Virus record (IMG/VR): IMGVR_UViG_2675903055_000001
Location: 26,476-90,475 of that record
DNA from: a virus
Lineage: Duplodnaviria > Caudoviricetes
Strand: one strand, 5' to 3'
Length of the DNA stretch: 64,000 nucleotides
The position numbers were made by a program, and so were the translations under genes. This document shows positions 5,183 through 62,475 of this stretch, one piece after another. The stretch's first letter is position 1; each line of letters starts with the position of its first letter. The notes below the pieces were generated by a model. The model made no database searches. It was not told the DNA's origin and saw nothing but the letters and a program-made list of their open reading frames with translations.

Positions 5183-6217
5183 TCACACGAGACCTTCGAC
5201 AGCACCGCACCAGGCCGTCAGATCGGCTGCAGGACCCAACTCGCGCGAGCGAGCCCGAGCCCTCTTGGACGCCAACCGGTACTCGGCCGGATCACCGAGC
5301 AGCTTGCCCAACACCGCTTCGTAGCCGTCCACGTCGAAGCGGTCCACGAACACGCCCGCCTCGCCGAGCGACTCGCACAGGCCCGGAGTCGGATGTGCCA
5401 CCACAGGGATGCCAGACGCCAACGCCTCAACGCCAGCCCGTCCCCACGACTCGTAGACCGACGGCATCAGCAGCACCTTCGTGCGGGCATACACCCGCTC
5501 CCGCATCTCGGAGCCGTCCACGTGCTCGACGACCTCGACATTCGGCAGGTCCGGAAGGATCTGCTCGCCGTAGGCACCGCGCACGGCCAGGAACTGCTGA
5601 TCCGGCATGCGCCGGGCCAGCGCCGCGAGTGTCGTCCCGCCCTTTTCCGCATTGCAGTTGATCAGCGTGATGGCCTTGCCGGGCTTCGTCGCATACTCGT
5701 CGGCGAACACCGGAGGCCGCACGATCAGCGACCGCTCCGGCCGGACAGCCTTCGGATACTCGGCGAAGAACAACTCCGCCTCCGCCTCCATCCAGCGCGA
5801 GTTGTACACCGCCAGCGCCGTCTGCCCCGCCGCCGCATCCCGGAACGTGGGCCGGTGCGTGTTGTGACACACGACCACCATCGGCTTGCCGTAGCCGCGG
5901 GCCAGCGACGCCGTCGACGGAACGCACTCCAGATGCGACAGCAGCACATCCGCCCGCCGCACAGCAGAAGGGAAATCCAGGCGCGCCTCCAGCGGCACGA
6001 CGCGCACGCCCCGGTACTCGTAGACCTCGTGTGCCTTCCCGTAACGGGACAACCACACCTCCACCTGATGCCCGCGCTCGACCAGCGGCCGCAGCATCGA
6101 GATCAGCATGTGCTCGGCGCCCGCGTTGTGCTCCGGTGGCGCGGCGTGCACGCGGGCGACGATGGACAGCGGCTTGGCTGCCCCGTCCGGCGCGGAAGCC
6201 GGGACAGCCCTGGCCAT
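5183..6217 (-). CDS. Glycosyltransferase family 4 (GT-B fold)
   Basis: HNAGAE N-terminal motif and PSVYESWGRAGVEALASGIPVV (EX7E) motif; ATG overlaps the capsid stop (TGATG). Confidence 0.9.
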   Translation of the reverse strand: MARAVPASAPDGAAKPLSIVARVHAAPPEHNAGAEHMLISMLRPLVERGHQVEVWLSRYGKAHEVYEYRGVRVVPLEARLDFPSAVRRADVLLSHLECVPSTASLARGYGKPMVVVCHNTHRPTFRDAAAGQTALAVYNSRWMEAEAELFFAEYPKAVRPERSLIVRPPVFADEYATKPGKAITLINCNAEKGGTTLAALARRMPDQQFLAVRGAYGEQILPDLPNVEVVEHVDGSEMRERVYARTKVLLMPSVYESWGRAGVEALASGIPVVAHPTPGLCESLGEAGVFVDRFDVDGYEAVLGKLLGDPAEYRLASKRARARSRELGPAADLTAWCGAVEGLV

Positions 6218-7173
6218 CAGGAACCGCTCGGGGTGCCGGTGAACTTCACGAACGCCTGCGCGTCACCCATGACGAACCCGTAGTACGCCTCCGCCAGGAG
6301 CAGCACCAGGTTCTCCTGGAAGGCGGAGTGGACGCCGCCTTCCTCGTCCACGTAGGTGGCCTCGTTCGACACGCGCACGGTGATGTCCATGCCCACGCCG
6401 TAGGCGCACTGCGACCAGTCGCCGCCCAGCGCCCGCAGGCCGGAATCGACACTGGCGGACTGACGCCGCTGCTTCCCCGACACGCTCCGCGAGTAGGCCA
6501 GCGGCTCACCGATCAGCGTCCCCGCCGCCGCCATGTCCGTACCCGGCGTCTGCGTGTCCACCAGGATCGGCCGGCCGGTGGTGTCCGTGGCCAGCAGCAG
6601 CTTCGGCTTCAGCCGGTGATCCGCGACGGTACCGGTGTAGTCCCAGTCCGCGTCGATGACCTCCTCCATGCCCGTCACCAGGTCGGCCCAGATGCCGCCG
6701 TTGCCCTGCGTCGCAGTGCCCAGCGTGACGCTGTTCGTCGTGGAGGCCAAGTACTCGGTGAACGGACCCGCAGCGCCCTTCATGGTCTTGCCGTGGATCG
6801 CCGCGTGGTCGAACGCGCGGGCGAACGCGGTAGGCAGATCCTTCTGCAGTTGGCTGTAGAGACCCGCGGCGTTGGTGTTCGCGACCTCCATCGCCACCGG
6901 GATCAGCACCGCCAGCTTCTTCGCCTGCATCTGCTTCACGTCCACGCCACCGGTCGACAGGGGCTTCTTCGCCGCCTGCCCGACCCAGTCCGCGGTCGGC
7001 ACGTCCATCGGGATCGGCACGGACGTGGTGGCGTCCAGCGCCAGCGGCGCCGGACGCGCCAGCGCCATGATCGCCGACTGCTCCACCGACTTCTCGAAGA
7101 TCGGAGCGGTGATCGTGCGCGGCAGAAGCGCACCATCGATGCTGGACAGGGTGATAGGGGCCGTAGCCGCCAT
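6217..7173 (-). CDS. Major capsid protein (HK97 fold)
   Basis: WVGQAAKKP, KKLAVLIPV, AFQENLVLLLAEAYYGF motifs. Confidence 0.95.
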   Translation of the reverse strand: MAATAPITLSSIDGALLPRTITAPIFEKSVEQSAIMALARPAPLALDATTSVPIPMDVPTADWVGQAAKKPLSTGGVDVKQMQAKKLAVLIPVAMEVANTNAAGLYSQLQKDLPTAFARAFDHAAIHGKTMKGAAGPFTEYLASTTNSVTLGTATQGNGGIWADLVTGMEEVIDADWDYTGTVADHRLKPKLLLATDTTGRPILVDTQTPGTDMAAAGTLIGEPLAYSRSVSGKQRRQSASVDSGLRALGGDWSQCAYGVGMDITVRVSNEATYVDEEGGVHSAFQENLVLLLAEAYYGFVMGDAQAFVKFTGTPSGS

Positions 7174-7918: not shown

Positions 7919-8725
7919 TTACTGGACGGGCGACGCATCGTGCTCGGCGATCGCCCGACGGAACAGGCGAAGCTGATCGCCCGGATGGCCTTGCGCGTAC
8001 TCCCGGTAGATGCGGTCCCACCGAGCCGCCTGCGGAGACAACTCGAACCGCTGCCCCCGGAAGACACTGATGATCTGACAGGAGCAGTGGTCGTGATACT
8101 TCGCCACCGACGCATCGCCGGAAAACCGGTCGTTGGCATCCCGACCGGCCGTGCCTGCGGACTTGTAGACCATCCCGCGTGAGGCCATCAAGCGGCAGAA
8201 CGCGCAAGCGCCAAGCGCTGCGGCCCGCGCGTAACCAACAGCCTCACGGTCCCGCTGCACAGCCTGCCGCGTCGTCTGGCGTCCCTGATCCAAGACGAGC
8301 TTTTCCACCACCGCAGCCGTCTTCTTCTCCGCCGCAGCCAGCCTCACCTCGACTGGCTGTGCCTGCGCCGCCGTGGTACGCGGATCGTCCGGGTCCCGGG
8401 GCCACAGGTCCTTGGTGGCCCATCGCAGTGACGCCTGCGTCTGCTCCTGCGGCGGGCTGTCCGCGAGCGGCACGGTGAACGCACTGGTGACGTCGGCCGC
8501 GGCTCGCTGCGCCTCGTACACCTCGGCAGCCAACTGCGCCGCCAAGTCGCCGTACTGGCGCACCACCGCGTCGACCGCCTCCATCCACGGCGGCAACGTC
8601 GCACCCATCCGCGCGGGCACGAGGAGTCTCCGCAGCCTGCCCAGATCCCTGCGCAGCAGCCGCACCAGCCCGGCAGCAGCCTGACGGTGACGGGCGCCGT
8701 CCGCGTCAGAAACTCTCCTCGCCAC
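7919..8725 (-). CDS. MuF-like minor capsid / capsid maturation protein
   Basis: GACAFCRLMASRG and YHDHCSC motifs; follows portal. Confidence 0.8.
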   Translation of the reverse strand: MARRVSDADGARHRQAAAGLVRLLRRDLGRLRRLLVPARMGATLPPWMEAVDAVVRQYGDLAAQLAAEVYEAQRAAADVTSAFTVPLADSPPQEQTQASLRWATKDLWPRDPDDPRTTAAQAQPVEVRLAAAEKKTAAVVEKLVLDQGRQTTRQAVQRDREAVGYARAAALGACAFCRLMASRGMVYKSAGTAGRDANDRFSGDASVAKYHDHCSCQIISVFRGQRFELSPQAARWDRIYREYAQGHPGDQLRLFRRAIAEHDASPVQ

Positions 8726-10178
8726 CGGTCACCTCCGGCAGACCTGCGGCCTCCCCCGTCGAGGCCGAACTGTCCTCCCCGCCGCCGAGCCCAGTGAGCC
8801 GATCCAGCAACTGGGCCCCGGCAAAGCGGCGCCGGTCGGCTGCGACACGCTGACGCTGCCCCTCCGACAGGCCCGCCAGCTCCAGCGTCACGTCGGAGTC
8901 GGCCGGCAGAATCCCGGCCTGCACCAACTTGACCGCAGCATCGGTCTGCGCCGCCACGGTCGGTGTCGCTGGGTTCCGCCACACACACTCGATACGCCGC
9001 TCACGGGGCGGCGCCTCCCCATCGCGCACCCACATGGCCAGACGCATCACATCCGCCCACACCGCGCCGAAGCGGCGAATCCGACGCTCGGCCTTCTTCA
9101 CCAGCATCGCCTCGCTGCTGCGGATCGCATCCGCAGAAGCCGGGTTGTCCGAGGTGTAGCCGAGCATGTGCGGCGGTAGCCCCAACTGAGTCGCCATGAT
9201 CCGCGCATACAAGTCGATGATCTTCGTCATGCCAGTCGGGTCATGCGCCGCGAACTGGCCCACAGTCGGAAGGTTTCCCTCCTCGTCCCGCTCCAAGGCC
9301 AGGACCCGACCGATGTACGTCTCCCACGCAGACTTCGCGTTGCCCTCCGCGTCCTGGAACGCAGACTCGGACGCGCCGAGGATGTAGCGCTGCGGAGCAC
9401 CGAAGAACTCCGCCGCCACCTCCATGCCCATCAACCGGCGGCACGCAGCATCCGTGATCGACATGACCTCCGGGGTGATCTCACTACGCCCCACCCGGTC
9501 CGCGGTCCGCTGACGATTCGCCATCCGCAACACCGGAGGCAACCCCAGACCGTGCATGTCCCGGTCGACGACCTCCCAGCCGCCACTGGGCGAAGGCACC
9601 GCATACACCGTCTGCTCAGGCCCGTACAGCACCGTCAACGGCTCATCGCTGCGCGCCGGATCCAACCGATCCACGGTGCACTCCCGCAGCGCCGACGTCA
9701 CCATCCGCAGACGGGCATCCCACTCCACCGTCATATCCAACGGAGACTCGACCGTGATCACAGGCGGGCAATCCCCACCCGGGCCGCACTCACCCGACCC
9801 GACCGCGATGTACTCCCGCCCATAGGTCAGCGCGTCCAAGTGCGCCAGACTCGCCTCGTCGAACAGATCGTTCGCGTCGGCGATCTCCCGCAGACCCTCC
9901 GCGTCCCCGCCGTCAGCCCAGCGGAACGCCTCCAAGTCGAGACGCTGCTCCAGCGCCTCCACACCGATCCGCGGCCATCCGATGACCGTGTGCAGGCCCT
10001 TCAACTGCGGCGGGATGGAGATCCCCAGGTCCCGCACCAGTTGCTCACCGTTGAAGTAGGCGTCCAACAGTTGCAGATGCCACCGTGCCGACAGCAGGTC
10101 CTGCCGGAGAAACTGGATCTGCGCCAGCTCGTCCTCCGACAACGACACCAGCGGAAGCTCAGGGATCGTAGCGGCCAC
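8706..10178 (-). CDS. Portal protein (SPP1 gp6-like)
   Basis: IGWPRIGVEALEQRL, FFGAPQRYILG, SDNPASADAI, WRNPATPT. Confidence 0.95.
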   Translation of the reverse strand: MAATIPELPLVSLSEDELAQIQFLRQDLLSARWHLQLLDAYFNGEQLVRDLGISIPPQLKGLHTVIGWPRIGVEALEQRLDLEAFRWADGGDAEGLREIADANDLFDEASLAHLDALTYGREYIAVGSGECGPGGDCPPVITVESPLDMTVEWDARLRMVTSALRECTVDRLDPARSDEPLTVLYGPEQTVYAVPSPSGGWEVVDRDMHGLGLPPVLRMANRQRTADRVGRSEITPEVMSITDAACRRLMGMEVAAEFFGAPQRYILGASESAFQDAEGNAKSAWETYIGRVLALERDEEGNLPTVGQFAAHDPTGMTKIIDLYARIMATQLGLPPHMLGYTSDNPASADAIRSSEAMLVKKAERRIRRFGAVWADVMRLAMWVRDGEAPPRERRIECVWRNPATPTVAAQTDAAVKLVQAGILPADSDVTLELAGLSEGQRQRVAADRRRFAGAQLLDRLTGLGGGEDSSASTGEAAGLPEVTGGEESF

Positions 10179-10191
10179 AGGTCACCGCCCT

Positions 10192-11931
10192 TCACCTGAG
10201 TACGACGACCCGGCCCTTACCGGCCGACCGCTTCTTGGCCCACGCGGGCGAGTTCATCAACATGCGGCGCAGCATCCGCGCCCCGATCGCACACACCGCG
10301 AGATCGATCTTCCGGGCGGACTCGCGGTGCTCCTTACCGATCGTGTAGCCCCACCTGTTCGTCCGCCGCCGCGCATTCGCGATGTGCTGCCGCAGCACCC
10401 GGTGCCCGTCGTGAGGCACCTGCCGCTCCAGCGCATCCCGGTAGAACCGGTCAACCGCCTCCGTGAACAGCGGCTGATGCTTCGGATCACGCATGTCCCA
10501 CAGCACCGCGTGCTGCCGCGTACCCGAGACCACAGCCTTCAGCTTCAGGCGCTTCCCGTACCGCTGTGCCCACGAGTCGATGTAACCGTCCCAGTACCGC
10601 TCGCCGTCCGCGTCATCGTGGCCGGCTCCCGGGTCGGCGAAGAACGCGAGCGGCCGGTAGCGGGCGAAGGTCTGCTCGACCACGCCGTCGACCTCATCCC
10701 GCGGCACCCGCCACGGCCGATCATCCGGCCAGCCCGGCGGCTTCTGCCACACGCCCAGAGCAGTCACGAAACCGTCCGACACCCGACACGCCACCAACCC
10801 GGTGGCGTCATCGCTCTTCGACCCGTCGAAAAACAAGACGATCTCGTCTCGCTCGGCCAGCTCCACGCCGTCGACCTGGCAGGCATCCCACTCGTAGCGG
10901 GCCATGTACGCGTCGTCCGCGGCGACGATCTGGTTGAACCAGAACCGGCGACTACGCGACGGCGGATTCCGCACATCCAGGATCGACGCCTTCAGCCGGT
11001 CGATGTCCAGCCACACGGAATCCCCACGCACAGCCTTCAGCGTCGGGACGATCCACTCCTCCGTCAGCTTCGCCTCAGCCGGCGCCTCCAACGAGTCGTA
11101 GAACAGACCCGTATCGACCGACCGCCCGGACTCCGCCGACTCGAACGCCTCCCGAGTGCGCTCCGCCACCGAGTCCTCACCCGGCTCGTAAGCGTTCGTG
11201 AGAGCCAGGGTTCGCGACATTCCGTCCGCGCTCTTGGTCGAGTTGCGCTCGATGACCGCAGCCATCTCGTGCCCCTGATTCGAGTCCACCCAGTGGTGCG
11301 TCTCATTCAGCAGGACGAACGTCGGCCGACCGCCCTCCATCGCTCGCGGCGAAGACGTGACCGCCTCAACTCGAGCGCGTCCCTTGTCCGCATAGATGAT
11401 CTCCTTGCCGAGATCGATGCGGTACTCCTCGATCGCCCGCTTGCTGAACATCCCCGGGAAGAGCGTCATCGTCGAGCGCGTCTGGTCCTGCGACACCGCC
11501 GCGATCTGCACCCAGGCCGCCGGATGCTGCATTCCGATCGGCTGCCCCGGCGGGATCCCCCACTCGTCTCCCTCATCCGCCACCTGGCCCGACGGCCGGC
11601 ACGGGCCGACAAACTCGAACCCCGACCACGAAGCCCCCAAGGGATCCTTGCCATGACCCTTGAGGCGTTGGATCACGCCGTCCCGGTACTGGAACCGCAA
11701 CGTCACCGGGTCCAGCGCGTACCACCACAGCGTCAGCCGGGCCTGCTCCGCCGTATACCGCCACGGCGCCCCGACATGGTGCTGGAGGTACGTAGCCGTC
11801 CACGCCAGCGCATGCCAGCCCAGCGTGAACTCCGGCAGCACGAACCGGCCGTCCCGGCCACGCCGCCAAGTCGGCCCGAGCGTGAACGGGGTGACGACCT
11901 CGGGGACGGCTTCAACTTCCGCGTTCATCAC
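10192..11931 (-). CDS. terL: Terminase large subunit
   Basis: Walker A-like RLKGHGKDP, Walker B LLNETHHW, nuclease FFDGSKSDDAT, KIDLAV. Confidence 0.95.
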   Translation of the reverse strand: MMNAEVEAVPEVVTPFTLGPTWRRGRDGRFVLPEFTLGWHALAWTATYLQHHVGAPWRYTAEQARLTLWWYALDPVTLRFQYRDGVIQRLKGHGKDPLGASWSGFEFVGPCRPSGQVADEGDEWGIPPGQPIGMQHPAAWVQIAAVSQDQTRSTMTLFPGMFSKRAIEEYRIDLGKEIIYADKGRARVEAVTSSPRAMEGGRPTFVLLNETHHWVDSNQGHEMAAVIERNSTKSADGMSRTLALTNAYEPGEDSVAERTREAFESAESGRSVDTGLFYDSLEAPAEAKLTEEWIVPTLKAVRGDSVWLDIDRLKASILDVRNPPSRSRRFWFNQIVAADDAYMARYEWDACQVDGVELAERDEIVLFFDGSKSDDATGLVACRVSDGFVTALGVWQKPPGWPDDRPWRVPRDEVDGVVEQTFARYRPLAFFADPGAGHDDADGERYWDGYIDSWAQRYGKRLKLKAVVSGTRQHAVLWDMRDPKHQPLFTEAVDRFYRDALERQVPHDGHRVLRQHIANARRRTNRWGYTIGKEHRESARKIDLAVCAIGARMLRRMLMNSPAWAKKRSAGKGRVVVLR

Positions 11932-24797: not shown

Positions 24798-25352
24798 ATG
24801 GTCAGGTCAGCGCCGTCGCCGGGGAGGACGACTGCGGCGAGCAGCGGCCGGGCGACGGTGGGTAACGCCACCAAACGGCGGTACAGGCCGAAGCACTCGT
24901 CCTGTTATCACGTCGGCTACTCGCTCACGTGCCGCGAGTACGACGACCTCCTGCGCCTCAGCAGGGGACGGTGCAAGATCTGCAAGGAAGCCGCTTCGCA
25001 TCTGTGCATCGACCACGATCACAAGCTGGGAACATGGGCGGTTCGCGGCCTCATATGCAACGCCTGCAATCTGGCCCTCAAGAAAGTCGACGCTGGGTGC
25101 GGGGAGAAGAGCCCGGCAGTCGCGAGGTACCTCGCGAACGCTTGGCACAGAAGGCAAGCGAGTAGTGCAGTCAAGGCCGCTCGTGTCCGGCCAGTCTCCG
25201 AATGCCCTGTGTGCGGGAAGCGGTCGTCGGTGAAGCGTGACGGCCGCCTCTACGAGCACTGGTCCCGTCTCCCAGGGCAGTACGAAACGCGCTGCACTGG
25301 CGTCCCTGACGCCAGGCTCCCGCAGCGTCCCGAACCTACCGAAGGGGCATGA
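24798..25352 (+). CDS. Endonuclease VII-type (His-Me finger) nuclease
   Basis: YSLTCREYDDL..CKIC..LCIDHDH..VRGLICNACN; GAGGAGG RBS. Confidence 0.85.
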   Translation: MVRSAPSPGRTTAASSGRATVGNATKRRYRPKHSSCYHVGYSLTCREYDDLLRLSRGRCKICKEAASHLCIDHDHKLGTWAVRGLICNACNLALKKVDAGCGEKSPAVARYLANAWHRRQASSAVKAARVRPVSECPVCGKRSSVKRDGRLYEHWSRLPGQYETRCTGVPDARLPQRPEPTEGA

Positions 25353-32846: not shown

Positions 32847-32883
32847 TTGTCACCAATGTATGGGCACCCATACAATTAGGCAA
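32847..32883. promoter_or_regulatory. Overlapping divergent sigma70-type promoters sharing a palindromic operator
   Basis: Plus: TTGTCA(32847)-18-TACAAT(32871). Minus: TTGCCT(32883)-17-TACATT(32860). Operator TGTATGGG-CA-CCCATACA at 32857-74. Confidence 0.85.
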
Positions 32884-35358: not shown

Positions 35359-35750
35359 GGCTGCTCCTGGTTGATGGTGCGGGCGACGGCGAGGGCGTGG
35401 GGGCCGCCACCGCCGCGGTGGCCCCACTCGGCGAGGGTGTACGCCTCTTGCTGGGCCGCGTGCTCCAGCCAGTCGGCGAGGGCGAGGCCGATGCCGGGGT
35501 GCATGGCGGCGATGTAGGCGGCGTCGGCCCACACGTTGCGGGTCTCGTCCCACGATTCCTGGCTCATCGTCGGCAACCAGGCGCGGAGTTCGGTGTCGTT
35601 GCGCTCGCCGGACAGGACGGTCGCGGTGTGCCCGTACTGGCCGAGGTGGGTGTCGTGCTGGCGCCACGGGCCGGGGGTGGCGGCGGTGGCGAGCGCCCGC
35701 AGGCGTGCGGCGGCGGTGCGGAGTTCGTCGGCGGGGCTGGGGTCGGTCAC
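35355..35750 (-). CDS. Ead/Ea22-like hypothetical protein
   Basis: AATPGPW...DAAYIAAMHP. Confidence 0.75.
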   Translation of the reverse strand: MTDPSPADELRTAAARLRALATAATPGPWRQHDTHLGQYGHTATVLSGERNDTELRAWLPTMSQESWDETRNVWADAAYIAAMHPGIGLALADWLEHAAQQEAYTLAEWGHRGGGGPHALAVARTINQEQP

Positions 35751-36727
35751 GGCTGCTCCTCGATGCCGTGGCAGTCGCATCCGCAGGGGACACCGGTGAA
35801 CTTGTTGTTGCGGCGACACCTGTCGTGGAGGTGGTCGGCCGCCGCCCGGAGTTCCTCGGCGTGTTCGGTGTGGACGTCGACTACGCGCTCGCACTCGCGG
35901 GCCGTCTCACATGCGGTGCTGGTGTACGGCGGCACGTCGATCAGGCGGAGCAGGTGGTCGGGGAGCTGCTCGCGGGTGCTGCCGGGCGGGGGCGGGGTGA
36001 AGTCGTCGGTCACGGTCAGCTTCTTGGCGGGCTGGATGACGATGTCTTTGCCGAGGAGGCGGAAGACCTCGCGGATGGTGTCCAGGCTGAGCCCGTTGAT
36101 CAGTTCGCCGATGGGCGTGGTGAGGTCGATGGGTACCCACGGGGCGGGTGGGGCTGCGTCGCGCCGCGTGCAGCGGCCGGCTCGGACGTGGCCGTCGGCG
36201 CACTCCTCGCCGCAGTGGGCGGCGGTTCGGGCGCACGGGGTCTGGCGGCAGGAGCAGTTGGCGCAGTGCTCGCAGAACGGCTGGTTCCGGTAGTTGTGGT
36301 AGACGATCTCTTCCGAGTCGCAGCCGACGCAGCGTTCGGCTAGCTGCCAGCGCGTGCCGTGGTCGTTGGCGTGGCTGCCGTAGTGGCCGGGGTGCAGCAC
36401 GCACTCCTCACGAATGGCGCCGAACGGGTCAGTGGGCGACAGATCGCCGCAGCGCTCGGGCGGTGGGTGCTGTTCGCGGGTGTGGCGTTTCAGTTCGGCG
36501 TGGCTGGTGGTGCGGAAGTCGGGGCAGTCCCAGCAGCCGTAGTTGACGGGTGTGGTCATGGTGGTCTCCGGGGTGGTGCGGAAGGTGTCGGGGGCGACAG
36601 TCGGTGTGAGGGTTTCGAGAGCCCGGTCGAGGCTGGCGAGCGTCTCGCGCTGCCGGGCGGGGTCGGTGAGTACTCGGCGGGCAAAGGCCCATCCGCAGCA
36701 GTCGGGGCTGGGGTTGGGGTTGGTCAT
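35747..36727 (-). CDS. Cys/His-rich mosaic multi-zinc-finger protein
   Basis: CWDC..H..H, C..HPGH..H, CVGC, CEHC, CGCDCH. Confidence 0.65.
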   Translation of the reverse strand: MTNPNPSPDCCGWAFARRVLTDPARQRETLASLDRALETLTPTVAPDTFRTTPETTMTTPVNYGCWDCPDFRTTSHAELKRHTREQHPPPERCGDLSPTDPFGAIREECVLHPGHYGSHANDHGTRWQLAERCVGCDSEEIVYHNYRNQPFCEHCANCSCRQTPCARTAAHCGEECADGHVRAGRCTRRDAAPPAPWVPIDLTTPIGELINGLSLDTIREVFRLLGKDIVIQPAKKLTVTDDFTPPPPGSTREQLPDHLLRLIDVPPYTSTACETARECERVVDVHTEHAEELRAAADHLHDRCRRNNKFTGVPCGCDCHGIEEQP

Positions 36728-36755
36728 CAGGTTCCCTTCAGCGTCGTGTGGGTTG

Positions 36756-36829
36756 TGCCCGAGGCCGGATTCGAACCGGCACTGAGCCGCTTTTAAGGCG
36801 GGCGCGTCTACCTGTTGCGCGACTCGGGC
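36756..36829 (-). tRNA. tRNA-Leu(UAA), bldA-type anticodon, short variable loop
   Basis: Acceptor GCCCGAG/CTCGGGC + A73; Leu-type D-loop (A14,A15,G18G19,U20,A20a,G21,A22); loop CTTAAAA (anticodon 36793-95); T-arm GCCGG-TTCGAAT-CCGGC; 74 nt, CCA not encoded. Confidence 0.85.
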
Positions 36830-36837
36830 GAAGGCGG

Positions 36838-37953
36838 TCAGGAGAAGAGGGCGAGTTGTTCGCGCTCGGCGCCCTGCGGAAGCACGACGGGGACCGGGTC
36901 CGCCTCCGCGCCCGGCCCGCTGCCGTCGTCGGCTGGGGTGTCGGTGCCGCCGTCCGTGCCGAGGTTGACGATGCGGGCCTGGGCAGGGCGCAGCCGCGCG
37001 TACTCGGCGCGGCTGACCTTCCCCGCGAGGAGACTGTCGCCGACGCTGATGCGAGGCATCGGCCGGTGCGGTATCGCGTCCAGGCGCAGCGGCCCGGGTA
37101 GGGCGCCGGCCTCGTGGAGTAGGTGGGCGAGGTAGACGGTGACGCGGAGTCGGCACACGGCCTCGGTGACCGGGTCGAGTTCCATGCCGTCGACGCCGGC
37201 GAGGATGCGGCGGGCCGCCGCGGCCGGGGGTATGGGTGTCCAGCCGGTGACGCCGTCCATGTGCATCTGCCGCGGGGCGAGTTGGCCGGTGGTGTACAGC
37301 TCCCAGAGCATGTCGATGGCGCGGATGAGGAAGTGGCCGGTTCCGCAGGTGGGGTCGATCAGGCGCAGCGTCTCGTTGCGGAACTCCGCGGCGGCGGGGA
37401 TGAGGGTGCGGTCGAGGATGCCGTCGGCGAGCCACCAGGGGGATTGGGCGAGGGCGTGGGCGAGGCGGCGTTCGTCGGTGACGAGTTGGAGGAGGTCGCC
37501 GAGGATCCAGCCGGTGATCGTGCCCGGCCCGCTCTCGACGGGGTAGGCGAGGGTGGGGGCGTCTTCGGCCCACCAGTGGAGTAGGCGGCTGCCGGCGGTC
37601 TCACTGGGTGAGGCGTGGCGGACGGGGTTGTCGTAGGCGGGGTCGAGGAGCGTCCAGGCGCAGGGGTGGACGGCGGTGTCGGCGACGGCGTAGGTGAGCC
37701 AGGCCAGGTCGGTGCCGCCCTGGGCGAGGAACTGCCGCCGTGCGGGCTGCGCGTCGGCGTTCAGGCGGCCGTCGATGAGGTGGTGGTCGGCTGCCCAGGC
37801 GTGGATGCAGGTCATGTACACCCAGCCGGCTGCGGTGCGGTGGGCGTCTTTGCCGGGGATGCTGTTGGCGAGCTGCTCGATCTGGCGCTGGAGTGCGCGG
37901 ATGAGGGGCCGGCTGGGTTCGGGGCGGGTCTGGGTGAGTGGGGTGCTGGTCAT
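36838..37953 (-). CDS. Truncated PglX/BREX-like adenine methyltransferase homologue (SAM-binding half only)
   Basis: LGDLLQ..ALAQSP..ILDRTL.PA..EF..LRLIDPTCGTGHF, GMELDP, VGDSLL; no NPPY/DPPY; ends EQLALFS. Confidence 0.8.
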   Translation of the reverse strand: MTSTPLTQTRPEPSRPLIRALQRQIEQLANSIPGKDAHRTAAGWVYMTCIHAWAADHHLIDGRLNADAQPARRQFLAQGGTDLAWLTYAVADTAVHPCAWTLLDPAYDNPVRHASPSETAGSRLLHWWAEDAPTLAYPVESGPGTITGWILGDLLQLVTDERRLAHALAQSPWWLADGILDRTLIPAAAEFRNETLRLIDPTCGTGHFLIRAIDMLWELYTTGQLAPRQMHMDGVTGWTPIPPAAAARRILAGVDGMELDPVTEAVCRLRVTVYLAHLLHEAGALPGPLRLDAIPHRPMPRISVGDSLLAGKVSRAEYARLRPAQARIVNLGTDGGTDTPADDGSGPGAEADPVPVVLPQGAEREQLALFS

Positions 37954-38399
37954 GCGGCGTGCTCCTGTCGCCCGGTGGTGATGTGGGCTGGGGTGATGAG
38001 GCCAGCGGCCATGGCGAGGGCGACGGCGTGGGTGGCGGTGCGCGCGCCGAGCCGGTGGTGGGCGGTGCGCAGAAGCCAGCGGACCGTGTCGAGGGAGGTG
38101 CCCATCTGGTCGGCGGCGTGCTGCGCGGTGTAGCCGAGGGCGGTCCAGAGCAGGGCTTCGAGCTGCCGGCCGGTCAGGGGGTTGTCGAGGGGGGCGTCGA
38201 GGAGTCCGGTGCGGGTGGCGAGGTAGACGGCGTGGGGCATGCTGACCGCGCCGAGTTTGCGCATGACGCGGGTGGCTACGTTCGCCACGCTCTTGGTGGT
38301 GAGGTTGATGTGGTGGCCGATCTCGCTGTAGGTGTCGCCGGCCGCGGTTCCGCGGAGGACTTCGAGTTCCGTGTCTGTGAGTCCCCGCGGCCCGGTCAC
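37950..38399 (-). CDS. Tandem LuxR-type HTH regulator
   Basis: LTDTELEVL..KLGAVSMPHAV and LTGRQLEAL..RLGARTATHAV. Confidence 0.85.
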   Translation of the reverse strand: MTGPRGLTDTELEVLRGTAAGDTYSEIGHHINLTTKSVANVATRVMRKLGAVSMPHAVYLATRTGLLDAPLDNPLTGRQLEALLWTALGYTAQHAADQMGTSLDTVRWLLRTAHHRLGARTATHAVALAMAAGLITPAHITTGRQEHAA

Positions 38400-38662: not shown

Positions 38663-39609
38663 GGGGGCTCCTCGCTGCCGGGGCCGGGGCAGAGGAACGG
38701 GTACGGCGGGTTGGTGTCGTGGCAGGCGGGGCAGTCCTCGGCATTGCCGCCGCGGTGCTTGAGTGCGGTCGGCGCTGGCCCGGGGGTCGGCTCGTCGTCG
38801 TGTACGGCGCGGATGCGTGCGACAGCGTCGCGCATTCCGGCGAGCGCCACAGGGTTCTTGCCGTGCACGTCGCTGTCGATGGCGTCGCACTCGCCGAGGA
38901 TGGCGGCGAGCTGGTTCTCCAGTCGGACCTCCACCTCACGCGCCCGGTCACGCTCGCCGCGCAGGCGGGCGCTGTCCTTCTCGGCCGCCGAGATCGCCCC
39001 CCGAAGTGCTTCGTCCAGCCCCTCGTTCTCCTCCCGCAGGCGGGCTTCTCGGATGCGGGACTCGGACAGCAGCCGGTACACCGCGTGCTGCTCGGCGTCG
39101 GCCACGGGCGTCACGGCGTCGGCGATGCGCCCGTCCTCGCCTGCGTCGAGGGCGTAGAGGCCGCCGGTCTCGTGCAGGTGGCGGACTGCTGCGGCGTACC
39201 GGTCGCGGCGTTCGCTGCTGCCGGAGGTGACGCGGACTGCGCCGCCGCCGGGCTGCTGCGCGTCGGCCAGGTGCACGAGCACGGTCTCCGCAGCCGCTTG
39301 CGCACGCGCGGCGGGCACCTGCACACCGCAGCCGGCGAGAGCGGACAACACCACAGCACGGAGATAGGCGGGATGGGTGGGGGCCTCGCGGTCCTGTGCG
39401 CCCGCCGGCGGCACGCTCTCGGTGCGCTGCGCTTCGGCGGCCAGGCGACGGACCTGTTCCAGTGCCGCATCCACGCCGTTGCAGAAGTCGCAGCCGTCGC
39501 CCGGCCGGTAGGAGCAGTTGGCGGCGACCTGCCGCACCGCCCGCTCCACTTCGGCGAGCGCGGCGACTCGGTCGGTGAGCGTGGGGAGGGAAGTGTTGCC
39601 GTGATTCAT
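38656..39609 (-). CDS. Mosaic coiled-coil hypothetical protein
   Basis: RRDRYAAA, coiled coil, AEDCPAC..YPFLCPG. Confidence 0.7.
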   Translation of the reverse strand: MNHGNTSLPTLTDRVAALAEVERAVRQVAANCSYRPGDGCDFCNGVDAALEQVRRLAAEAQRTESVPPAGAQDREAPTHPAYLRAVVLSALAGCGVQVPAARAQAAAETVLVHLADAQQPGGGAVRVTSGSSERRDRYAAAVRHLHETGGLYALDAGEDGRIADAVTPVADAEQHAVYRLLSESRIREARLREENEGLDEALRGAISAAEKDSARLRGERDRAREVEVRLENQLAAILGECDAIDSDVHGKNPVALAGMRDAVARIRAVHDDEPTPGPAPTALKHRGGNAEDCPACHDTNPPYPFLCPGPGSEEPPC

Positions 39610-40229
39610 GACGCCACGCCCTGCCCGTCGGCTCGCGTCGCTCCGCTCACAGCCACCGCACAGTCCGCGCAGTACCGCGTCGCCTTGGCCGGCGTGCGCC
39701 ACAGAACGGCTGGCTTCTCCAGGCCGCATGCAGTCTTCCAGAACCCGGCCTTTGACGGAGCTGCACTGTGAATCGTGGCTTGCTTCACGACGCACAGGCG
39801 GTCGGGCCAGGGGTCGTGATCGATGACGATTCCGAGACGGCGACACACAGAAAGTGGATCTTCGTAGCCCTTGGTGAGCCGCTCGGGCAGGATCGTATTG
39901 CGTACTTCTTGAACGGTCTGGAAGATCCGCCCCTGTTTGATGTTGTTGCACACGTGGCAGGCCAGGACCCAGTTGTCCTGCGGGTTCCGCGCGATGTACG
40001 CGTAGGGCGCGAAATGATCCCAGTTGAGGCGGAGTGTGACGAAACTGTTTTCGCGCAGGATCTCGGCGCCGATGGGTATCTGGCAGTAGAGGCACCGGTT
40101 GCGGTGCTCGGCGATCAGCCGCGCACGTTCAGCGGTACGAGGGCGACGGCGGGAGTCGTTGCCACTGATCTGACTGCGCCCGTACACGGTTCTGCGCCAG
40201 TCATTTGCGGGGAGTTCAGGGGTGGTCAT
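39606..40229 (-). CDS. HNH endonuclease
   Basis: CLYC..WDHFAP..NWVLACHVCNNIK. Confidence 0.85.
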   Translation of the reverse strand: MTTPELPANDWRRTVYGRSQISGNDSRRRPRTAERARLIAEHRNRCLYCQIPIGAEILRENSFVTLRLNWDHFAPYAYIARNPQDNWVLACHVCNNIKQGRIFQTVQEVRNTILPERLTKGYEDPLSVCRRLGIVIDHDPWPDRLCVVKQATIHSAAPSKAGFWKTACGLEKPAVLWRTPAKATRYCADCAVAVSGATRADGQGVAS

Positions 40230-42795: not shown

Positions 42796-43097
42796 GCGGT
42801 GACCTCGGCTTCCTGTACGCGCTGCGGGTGGGGTTCGGGGATCGCTCGGCCGCCGACCCGGCAGGGGGTGCCGGGCGCCACCTGGCAGGCGGGGCAGACG
42901 GCGGTGGCGATGACCCACGCGGTGATGCGGGCGGGGTGGACGGGCGCGTCGGTGATGCGGCGCCGTCCGCTGCGGGTGGTGCAGGGTGCGCGGTCGTGGG
43001 CGCCGCAGTGGGGGCAGGTGACGGCGAGGGCGGGGTGCTGTCCGGTGCGGGAGATGGCGCGGATGTCGTCGGGCATGGGGACGCTGTAGCGACTCAC
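42792..43097 (-). CDS. Double zinc-finger protein
   Basis: CPHC..C..H and CPAC..C..H. Confidence 0.7.
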   Translation of the reverse strand: MSRYSVPMPDDIRAISRTGQHPALAVTCPHCGAHDRAPCTTRSGRRRITDAPVHPARITAWVIATAVCPACQVAPGTPCRVGGRAIPEPHPQRVQEAEVTA

Positions 43098-43966
43098 GCT
43101 GCACGCTCCAGTCGGTCTTCGACCGGTAGGTCGAGGAGGGAGAGCTGCCGGGGGGCGGTCATGCCCTTCTCGATGGCGGCGAGGACGCCTTCGCGCCAGG
43201 CGAGGGCGTAGCGCAGGCAGTTCGCTTCGTTCTTGTGCGGGCCGCGGGAACGCGGAAGCCGGAAGTCGCAGCCGTCGCCGGGGGTGTGTCGGCCCTGGGC
43301 GGACCAGGCCATCGAGTCGGCTGTGCCGAGCAGGTGCGCGACGCGCCGGAGCCCCTCCGTCTTGAAGCCGAAGCCGTGCGCCCGGCCCGGGCCGACGATG
43401 CCCGCGACGGTGTGGATGACCTCCGCGGCGAGCGGGGTGTCCTGAATGCGGCACACGCTCCCGACACCCACCAGCGGCTCGCGAGTGAGGTCGACGCCGG
43501 CCCGCTCGTAGAGGGTGGCGCACTGCTCGTAGGCGGCCGGCCGGTCACCCTGCAGCACGGGGATGATCCGCACCGGGCAGTTCAGCGCGCGGAGCTCGCA
43601 AAAGTTCGCCACGGTCCGCCGCTGGTGCTCGGCCACGCTCAGGCGGGTGCCGGGGGCGTGCTTGCCGCCGGGCATGGGGCCGCCGTTGATGATGACGTCC
43701 TCGCACATCCAGTCCTGCGGCGCGGCCCACTCCAAGCGGCCGATGTGCTCCGCGTACCGGCGGATCTGTTCCACGTACTGGCGGGGGCTGGGTCCGCTGC
43801 CCCAGGTGCCGTGTTCGGACAGTTGAGTGAATCCGCCGGAGTCCAGCGCCCACGGGCCGCGGGCTTCGGGTAGGCGCCGTATGCCGCGCAGAGTTGTGTC
43901 GGAGACGAACAGCGGCACGTCGGTGTGTGCCATGAAGTGCGGCTTGGCGCCGAGGTAGAACTTCAT
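43094..43966 (-). CDS. dpdA: DpdA-like 7-deazaguanine DNA transglycosylase (TGT fold)
   Basis: ALDSGGF, AAPQDWMCE, IPVLQG, VGVGSVC, HGFG, ADSMAWS; C-terminal RQLSLL. Confidence 0.8.
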   Translation of the reverse strand: MKFYLGAKPHFMAHTDVPLFVSDTTLRGIRRLPEARGPWALDSGGFTQLSEHGTWGSGPSPRQYVEQIRRYAEHIGRLEWAAPQDWMCEDVIINGGPMPGGKHAPGTRLSVAEHQRRTVANFCELRALNCPVRIIPVLQGDRPAAYEQCATLYERAGVDLTREPLVGVGSVCRIQDTPLAAEVIHTVAGIVGPGRAHGFGFKTEGLRRVAHLLGTADSMAWSAQGRHTPGDGCDFRLPRSRGPHKNEANCLRYALAWREGVLAAIEKGMTAPRQLSLLDLPVEDRLERAA

Positions 43967-44475
43967 GCGGTCGCCTCCGGCCTGCGGGCGCGCCAGGCGA
44001 AGATCACCGTGATGGCGGCGGCCGTCATCCAGGCTTTGCCGACGAGTTGGCCGGGCAGGAACGCGAGGGACCCGAAGGCGAGCCACAGGAACACCACGCT
44101 GTCGGCGAGGAGACCGACCGCGTTGGAGGCGGCCATCGCGACCAGCAGGCCGCGTCGGCGGAGTGGTTCGTATACGGCGTAGTCGAGCGTCTCGGACAGG
44201 GCGAACGCCGCGGTGGAGGCGATGGCCAACTCTGGGGTGGCCAGCAGCCACGACAGCACCGCTCCTGTGGCGATCGCGGCGAGGATGGCGGCGCGTCCGG
44301 CGGCTTCCCGCGCGAGGTCACGGAGGACGAGGGCGAGGCCGACCATGTACACGCCGGCGGGTGCGGCATAGCCGAAGCCGACTGGCACGGCACCGACGTG
44401 AGTGACGAGCATGTTCGCGGCCGGGATGGTGGCGACGTAGGCGGTGAGGGCAACTGACGCGCGAACGGAGATCAT
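43963..44475 (-). CDS. yhhQ: VUT family (YhhQ-like) 7-deazaguanine precursor transporter
   Basis: AN, LRDL, AS..AF..SETLD..VY, SN..G...DS.VF..LAFG, GQ..GK. Confidence 0.85.
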   Translation of the reverse strand: MISVRASVALTAYVATIPAANMLVTHVGAVPVGFGYAAPAGVYMVGLALVLRDLAREAAGRAAILAAIATGAVLSWLLATPELAIASTAAFALSETLDYAVYEPLRRRGLLVAMAASNAVGLLADSVVFLWLAFGSLAFLPGQLVGKAWMTAAAITVIFAWRARRPEATA

Positions 44476-62429: not shown

Positions 62430-62475
62430 TGACTGGGGGTCAAGGGGTCGTGGGTTCAAATCCCGCCGTCCCGAC
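62430..62475 (+). other. Attachment-site core: duplicated 3' half of tRNA-Pro(GGG)
   Basis: TGACTGGGGGTCAAGGGGTCGTGGGTTCAAATCCCGCCGTCCCGAC covers anticodon loop to acceptor 3' strand; no intact 5' half. Confidence 0.85.

Follow-up and report, generated by a model that had tools for sequence, protein, structure and literature searches.

A short-armed tRNA with anticodon UAA and leucine-type features in the early/middle operon of a Streptomyces prophage

UUA is the rarest codon in Streptomyces, and its decoding by the bldA tRNA, which is dispensable for growth, is a textbook case of control through a rare tRNA. A gene for a tRNA with the same anticodon, UAA, lies in a stretch of 64,000 nucleotides of phage DNA, referred to here as the window. 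Its presence raises the questions of what kind of tRNA it encodes, where it came from and what a phage might gain by carrying it.

The tRNA gene and its prophage

ARAGORN, which the earlier note on this DNA had proposed as a check, made a single tRNA call in the whole 64-kb window, at positions 36755–36829 on the minus strand with anticodon taa. The Rfam tRNA model (RF00005) aligned end to end with 36829–36756, spanning all 71 model positions with a score of 53.9 bits (E 8e-9; gathering score, 29), and the minimum free energy fold is a cloverleaf of -33 kcal/mol. Together with the family covariation described below, these results place a type I tRNA with anticodon UAA and a leucine-type body at 36756–36829 on the minus strand. 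The earlier note had positioned the gene correctly; the strand is corrected to minus on the basis of ARAGORN and Rfam.

Counted to A73, the tRNA is 74 nt in size. The acceptor stem (GCCCGAG/CUCGGGC) is accompanied by U8 and A73, the D stem consists of 3 bp followed by C13.A22, and the layout of the D loop (A14, A15, G18G19, ..UAGA) matches that of the leucine isoacceptors of the host. The anticodon loop is CUUAAAA, and the anticodon stem is topped by a C27.C43 mismatch that was flagged as non-canonical by Infernal. The variable loop between the anticodon and T stems is 5 nt long (UCAGU, with U48 last), and the T arm is GCCGG-UUCGAAU-CCGGC. At the 3′ end the gene reads A73-C74-A-A; C74 is encoded and the CCA is not, so the CCA must be added after 3′ trimming. 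The anatomy originally described from the letters (a 74-nt UAA cloverleaf with a leucine-type D loop, A15/U48, A73, a 5-nt variable loop and C27-C43) agrees with both the sequence and the model alignment. This is a genuine, conserved tRNA with leucine-type features.

The tRNA gene sits in the early/middle operon of a Streptomyces prophage of approximately 89 kb located at tRNA-Pro(GGG). One end, attR, was found by blastn at 62430–62475 (strand not assigned), where 46 bp exactly repeat the 3′ part of tRNA-Pro(GGG). The second copy of the 46-bp repeat is at contig C31:219784–219829, beside a gene encoding a 465-aa tyrosine integrase (blastn; Pfam). The prophage is bounded by these two repeats, and the window contains its right 62 kb. 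The late region, which is downstream of the tRNA in the same prophage and on the same strand, includes genes for the terminase large subunit (10192–11931, minus strand; PHROG 1.9e-68), the portal (8706–10178; PHROG 1.6e-138), the major head protein (6217–7173; PHROG 3e-42) and the tape measure (3–1760; PHROG 3.6e-56). With the att repeats and the integrase, these genes bear out the original description of the tRNA as phage-borne. Other phage genes in the window encode a RecE-like exonuclease, WhiB and Ead/Ea22-like proteins. No close cultured relative of the phage was found, as a megablast search with 15 kb returned only short patches of mycobacteriophages. Likewise, no Streptomyces phage matched the tRNA at megablast sensitivity, and a second query returned only distant tRNA-Leu or tRNA-Met genes.

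Several further genes of the prophage were noted. DpdA and then a YhhQ/Vut_1-like transporter are encoded at 43094–44475 (minus strand; Pfam DpdA 2.8e-62) and make up a module for 7-deazaguanine modification of DNA; none of the neighbours tested was recognisable as a Que biosynthesis gene. An ORF for an HNH endonuclease (39606–40229, minus strand) has a GC3 markedly below that of its neighbours and is probably a homing-type insertion. To the left of the window, the prophage encodes a 536-aa protein with a TROVE domain (Ro60/Rsr-like; L173:12520–14130, minus strand, equivalent to C31:231520–233130). A search of 27.5 kb around this gene gave no above-threshold hit to any Rfam family, Y RNA included.

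In the region of the tRNA the genes are close-packed, with frequent 4-nt overlaps, and nearly all lie on the minus strand according to GC3-based frame analysis. On the 5′ side is an ORF for a 371-aa PglX-like protein (36838–37953, minus strand), identified from its translation and by a PADLOC match to PglX (E 1e-30, profile positions 59–327 of 1189). Its stop is at 36838 and the tRNA begins 8 nt later, the same spacing as reported previously. The protein is a homologue of the N-terminal third of PglX/type IIG methyltransferases in which SAM motif I (DPTCGTGHF) is present and the NPPY motif is absent, and its structural neighbours in the Atlas are MmeI/Eco57I/PglX methylases. Homologues sharing 27–88% identity also lie 5′ of the tRNA in three further lineages of elements (L034:3947–5044, L062:2365–3225, L035:12277–13050 and L057:5265–6038). 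The pairing of this gene with the tRNA may reflect a functional link or merely the common ancestry of a gene module. The truncated phage-borne protein could itself be a candidate anti-Pgl/BREX decoy.

The start of the PglX-like gene is overlapped by 4 nt by the gene for a LuxR/GerE-type or sigma-region-4 regulator (37950–38399, minus strand; Pfam GerE 2e-16; PHROG 'sigma factor' 2.5e-23), placing both in one operon. On the other side of the tRNA is a Cys-rich 326-aa ORF of unrecognised family (35747–36727, minus strand; frame plot, gene call and translation), the ATG of which is 28 nt 3′ of the tRNA end and is preceded by a good ribosome-binding site (GAAGGGAA). This ORF gave zero matches in Pfam, PHROG or PADLOC searches and is conserved in part in the viral contig L034. 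No private promoter or terminator for the tRNA was found nearby with a scan for intrinsic terminators and a simple sigma-70 scan, the latter being weak evidence in Streptomyces. Given this and the same-strand packing, co-transcription with the operon would be the simplest reading.

Relatives of the tRNA and the origin of the short arm

Relatives were sought with a pattern built on the conserved D stem and anticodon arm. Short-armed UAA tRNAs of 73–78 nt were found in 12 of the 13 pattern-matching IMG/VR viral contigs, and the scan identified more than 25 contigs of Streptomyces, Kitasatospora and Wenjunlia with UAA tRNA genes in the same size range. Copies were also found on Streptomyces plasmids (e.g. 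NZ_CP108868.1), and the scan also returned numerous long-armed tRNA-Leu(UAA) genes of the ordinary kind from Gaiellaceae. When 32 family sequences were aligned (alignment A1), standard pairs made up 99.8% of the cells of the 19 stem pairs. In eight of the pairs both partners have changed. These two values were reached in 0 of 500 shuffles, and slid controls paired at 32–46%. The invariance of the D and anticodon stems in this alignment is due in part to the search pattern, in which they were fixed, and the covariation is that of the acceptor and T stems. The variable loop is 5–6 nt in all 32 members, and T8, A14, G18, G19, T55 and C56 are invariant. Position 27–43 is paired or unpaired among the members, with the rest of the tRNA retained. 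Of 151 genomes sampled with a covariance model of the family, 4 had a score of at least 94 bits, and full-length homologues were detected by BLAST in 4 of 401 genomes. The family is thus present in roughly 1–3% of the sampled Streptomyces species genomes.

The family falls into two subfamilies. The first has C38 and a GUGGG T stem, and in the loci that could be checked the gene order is ABC/FtsX, bldA, short tRNA, FAD monooxygenase, BaxI. This chromosomal slot beside bldA was found in several species, and the remaining C38 loci are without those neighbours. Examples of the C38 tRNA-Leu(UAA) just 3′ of bldA are L024:8747–10046, L025:9953–10029, L056, L063, L074, L090 and L176. The second subfamily, which has A38 and includes the window tRNA, occurs in prophage, viral or plasmid settings. 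The host of the window prophage has neither an extra short tRNA beside bldA nor the FAD monooxygenase. In genome G202, a 24-nt copy of the 3′ end of bldA approximately 450 bp 3′ of bldA (L031, G202:C1:4880451–4880474) resembles a bldA integration scar. A different tRNA(UAA), 75 nt in length, was found in a prophage-like context (L026) at L015:1493–1567 (minus strand; in G081:C10). Its body is Ala-like, with G3.U70 as a wobble pair, A73 and GCUC/GAGC as the D stem, and it may be a candidate alanine acceptor reading the leucine codon UUA.

The closest relative of the window tRNA is in L034, a 78-kb viral contig, where a 95% identical tRNA is accompanied by the same flanking genes, and the flanks are 87–94% identical. 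As the tRNA is barely more conserved than its flanks, this pair alone does not reveal selection; the family covariation does. The similar conservation of tRNA and flanks is what would be seen if the gene were a functionless relic, decayed or left over from an attachment site, a reading that could also draw on the T arm, which equals that of bldA, and on the use of bldA 3′ ends as repeat or att-like sequences elsewhere, as in the 24-nt repeat of G202. However, the cloverleaf is full-length and scores 53.9 bits with the Rfam model, there are compensatory changes across the family, and the gene is within an operon, not at the boundary of the element. We therefore regard a relic as scarcely credible. 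An att remnant was rejected directly, since the att repeat of the prophage is the 3′ end of tRNA-Pro(GGG) and is 26 kb from the tRNA(UAA) gene.

The earlier note had considered the tRNA to be of bldA type. An intact, 87-nt bldA is present in the host, on contig C9 in its conserved setting between ABC/FtsX and BaxI, and the window tRNA is 73% identical to it, a value no higher than that for the remaining host leucine isoacceptors (72–74%). A bldA-type origin is not upheld by these figures, and descent from or orthology with bldA was rejected, as the D arm, the anticodon stem and the 5-nt loop also differ. The resemblance of the acceptor and T stems to those of bldA, which had been pointed out earlier, is real for those stems (5/5 T-stem pairs and 5/7 acceptor pairs are shared with host bldA) and does not extend to the rest of the molecule. 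The two tRNAs have the same anticodon and would read the same codon, but bldA is longer, and it differs in its long arm, its unusual D arm and its anticodon stem.

Higher identity (84–85%) was found with long-armed tRNA-Leu(UAA) of the same lineage, from a viral contig (L037) and Streptomyces desertarenae (L075), and with ordinary tRNA-Leu(UAA) from Gaiellaceae MAGs. Their anticodon stem-loop is identical to that of the window tRNA and their acceptor, D and T arms are closely related to it, with one pair of the T stem differing in L037 and L075, but they carry G13 and approximately 14–19 nt between the anticodon and T stems. The long-armed L037 tRNA differs from the short-armed L039 tRNA essentially in the arm, one D-arm base (G13 vs C13) and one T-loop base. 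The acceptor, anticodon and T arms shared with L037 and L075 support the original proposal that a long arm had been lost, and the window tRNA thus appears to derive from a long-armed tRNA-Leu(UAA).

Native type I tRNA-Leu(CAA) genes are 68–69% identical to the window tRNA, against the 84–85% for the long-armed UAA genes, and the short arm seemingly arose independently here. The family covariance model also separates the two groups, with scores of 66–76 bits for the native CAA genes and 95–100 bits for family members. All short-armed UAA members and the native type I CAA genes have C13 opposite A22, whereas G13 is found in every long-armed leucine tRNA examined. C13 looks like a shared adjustment of the core to a short variable loop.

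Short-armed leucine tRNAs are also found in other actinobacteriophages. The Mycobacterium phages Phabba and Myrna have a 74-nt example, annotated just as tRNA-Leu, that differs from the window tRNA in having the anticodon GAG, approximately 77% identity, another host genus and a location in the large tRNA array of a lytic phage. In Phabba, the gene (L216:301–374) is between two long-armed tRNA-Leu genes.

Probable charging by the Streptomyces leucyl-tRNA synthetase

The short arm had been viewed as anomalous for a bacterial tRNA-Leu. This does not apply to Streptomyces, where the type I design has already been published. The native type I tRNA-Leu(CAA) of S. coelicolor is leucylated by the single LeuRS of that species (ScoLeuRS), which also charges bldA deprived of the long-arm stem (Fan et al. 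2019, NAR 47:6369, PMC6614811), and genes for native type I tRNA-Leu(CAA) were also found in this study. Charging needs at least five nucleotides in the variable loop, including nucleotide 48, as well as U8:A14 and C74, while A73 is dispensable (PMC6614811). In earlier work cited in the same paper, tRNA-Leu(CAA) with its anticodon changed to UAA was the sole isoacceptor that replaced bldA in vivo. As the molecular design is known to work in Streptomyces, the tRNA itself is unsurprising. No paper was found that describes a short-armed tRNA-Leu(UAA) occurring naturally in Streptomyces phages or next to bldA, and the work on UUA bypass in the Hau3 terminase deals with codons, not phage tRNAs (PMC10732093).

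Of the RNA elements required by ScoLeuRS, the window tRNA has U8:A14, G18G19/U55C56 and a 5-nt loop with nucleotide 48; C74 is encoded and would become part of a CCA end only through processing. It shares the genus, the length of the variable loop, U8:A14, G18G19 and C13.A22 with the S. coelicolor type I tRNA-Leu(CAA), but the latter is core chromosomal and has the anticodon CAA, whereas the window tRNA is prophage-borne and has UAA. The variable loop is UCAGU here, ACAGC in S. coelicolor (PMC6614811) and ACAGT or CCAGC in the native CAA genes of other genomes. The LeuRS of the host is of the long actinobacterial form, approximately 957 aa, with a 38-residue LSD (Ile...Leu-Leu-Gly) directly before KMGKS; a 38-aa LSD ending in Leu-Gly is also a feature of the S. 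coelicolor enzyme. The host enzyme is 82–83% identical to its counterparts in genomes that have type I leucine tRNAs of their own, and the LSD is nearly identical. Judged from these sequence comparisons, leucylation of the window tRNA by the host LeuRS is likely.

Counted against a working leucine tRNA are the C27.C43 mismatch, the unencoded CCA and the host itself, which has an 87-nt CAA isoacceptor and no type I tRNA-Leu of its own. There is also one Streptomyces LeuRS, from the E. coli-like branch, that fails to charge type I tRNAs (PMC6614811). The mismatch, the unencoded CCA and the lack of a native type I tRNA-Leu would suit a decoy or competitor that does not decode and carries no leucine, or a tRNA charged by another synthetase, such that UUA is misread. 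The L015 tRNA(UAA), with its Ala-like body and G3.U70, would be a further point in favour of misreading. This is improbable in our view, as the body is leucine-type throughout and contains the LeuRS elements of Fan et al., with C74 encoded. In addition, pair 27–43 varies across the family while the rest is intact, identity marks for another amino acid are absent, and no synthetase-like gene was found near the tRNA in Pfam, PHROG or PADLOC searches.

Codon use and the possible role of the tRNA

Codons in the prophage and host were counted using crude GC3-based gene calls, which are biased towards high GC3. On this basis the prophage has two candidate TTA codons in 23,656, compared with 0.8 expected, which is not a significant difference. 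TTA is thus nearly absent from the phage genes, in line with the earlier note, in which none had been spotted in the ORFs inspected. In the host, TTA was found at 0.033 per 1000 codons, in approximately 64 genes by the same crude count. For a TTA-containing adpA, the crude host list offers two candidates, which are a polyprenyl synthetase and an IS66 transposase. TTG is 2.4-fold enriched in the prophage (6.0 vs 2.5 per 1000 codons in the host), an excess that fits the generally higher use of A/T-ending codons by the phage.

Of the two prophage TTA codons, the one at 24865 is the fourth codon of a questionable 59-aa ORF, and the second is in the only credible TTA gene (C31:223464–223859), near the integrase, and homologues have TCA, CTA, TTG or GTG at that site. 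Further in-frame TTAs at 32876, 56939 and 41838 were found on inspection to be in non-coding leaders or wrong-frame ORFs and were discarded. With one candidate doubtful and the other unconserved, the demand of the phage for UUA is minimal. The possibility that the tRNA serves conserved phage TTA codons was rejected, as the sole credible one is not kept in homologues. The product of the credible TTA gene (L203, C31:223467–223859) is a 131-aa protein of unrecognised family. A 90% identical paralogue in the same genome (L208, C18:758100–758489) has TCA at the TTA site, suggesting that the host contains a second related element.

The scarcity of TTA also bears on a role in counter-defence. Escape of phage tRNAs from anticodon nucleases is an established concept, and the window tRNA could replace a host tRNA-Leu(UAA) that is cleaved by a host anticodon nuclease during infection. 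Position 38 of the anticodon loop is A here and C in bldA, the stem differs also, and the tRNA adjoins the PglX-like, possibly anti-defence, gene. However, as bldA is dispensable and the phage has only one or two TTA codons, cleavage of bldA would not stop the phage and a replacement would gain it little. We consider this role very improbable.

The reading that we favour, at a probability only slightly above one half (about 0.55), is a working short-armed leucine tRNA carried as cargo by a temperate phage, serving as a bldA-independent decoder of UUA and UUG that insures phage translation. The tRNA would be transcribed within the early/middle operon and excised by RNase P and 3′ processing, with the CCA supplied by the CCA-adding enzyme of the host. 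Leucine would then be attached by the host LeuRS, and the charged tRNA would read UUA, and probably UUG too via wobble at U34. Decoding would be independent of the single, developmentally limited bldA tRNA of the host, and any de-repression of host TTA genes would be incidental. Translational insurance is suggested by the codon usage of the phage, in which A/T-ending codons are more frequent than in the host, TTG being in 2.4-fold excess and TTA occurring once or twice. If UUG were the only target, an anticodon of CAA would be enough. No tRNA with that anticodon was found in the family score range (at least 94 bits) in the 151 genomes, the CAA genes having a different body, and this is a hint that the reading of UUA itself matters.

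The missing CAA anticodon can also be cited in favour of a bypass of the bldA checkpoint as the selected function. The tRNA would then decode host TTA mRNAs, such as those of developmental and antibiotic regulators and of horizontally acquired genes, and reprogram development or metabolism without regard to bldA, either on induction or in lysogeny. The UAA anticodon has been kept by the family in a genus where UUA is rarest, the phage itself hardly uses TTA, and the host has approximately 64 TTA genes. A second short-armed UAA tRNA is fixed beside the chromosomal bldA in several species, indicating that cells too keep extra UUA decoders, and a type I UAA tRNA can stand in for bldA (PMC6614811). 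On the other hand, no host target was identified in the present analysis, the tRNA is in a lytic-phase operon where developmental reprogramming has no obvious pay-off, and U34 would also decode the far commoner UUG. Bypass as the selected function is therefore unlikely.

A broader proposal is that mobile short-armed tRNA-Leu(UAA) genes, in prophages, on plasmids and on islands beside bldA, form a widespread, unrecognised route round the bldA checkpoint. We put this forward as speculation and think it rather doubtful. If it is true, mobile UAA tRNAs would let host genes with TTA codons, including those for development, those of antibiotic clusters and acquired genes, be translated whatever the state of bldA. 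This could explain the reported bldA-independent decoding of UUA in some strains, examples of which are S. clavuligerus and S. ghanaensis (PMC10732093), and would represent a phage lever on host differentiation.

Control by bldA matters in practice, in the switching on of antibiotic gene clusters. A natural, mobile second decoder of UUA would alter the expression of TTA-gated genes in lysogens and plasmid-bearing strains, and a short-armed tRNA-Leu(UAA) would be a ready-made tool for bldA-independent expression. The interest of the tRNA lies in its biology, namely the timing of its expression and the mRNAs on which it would act.
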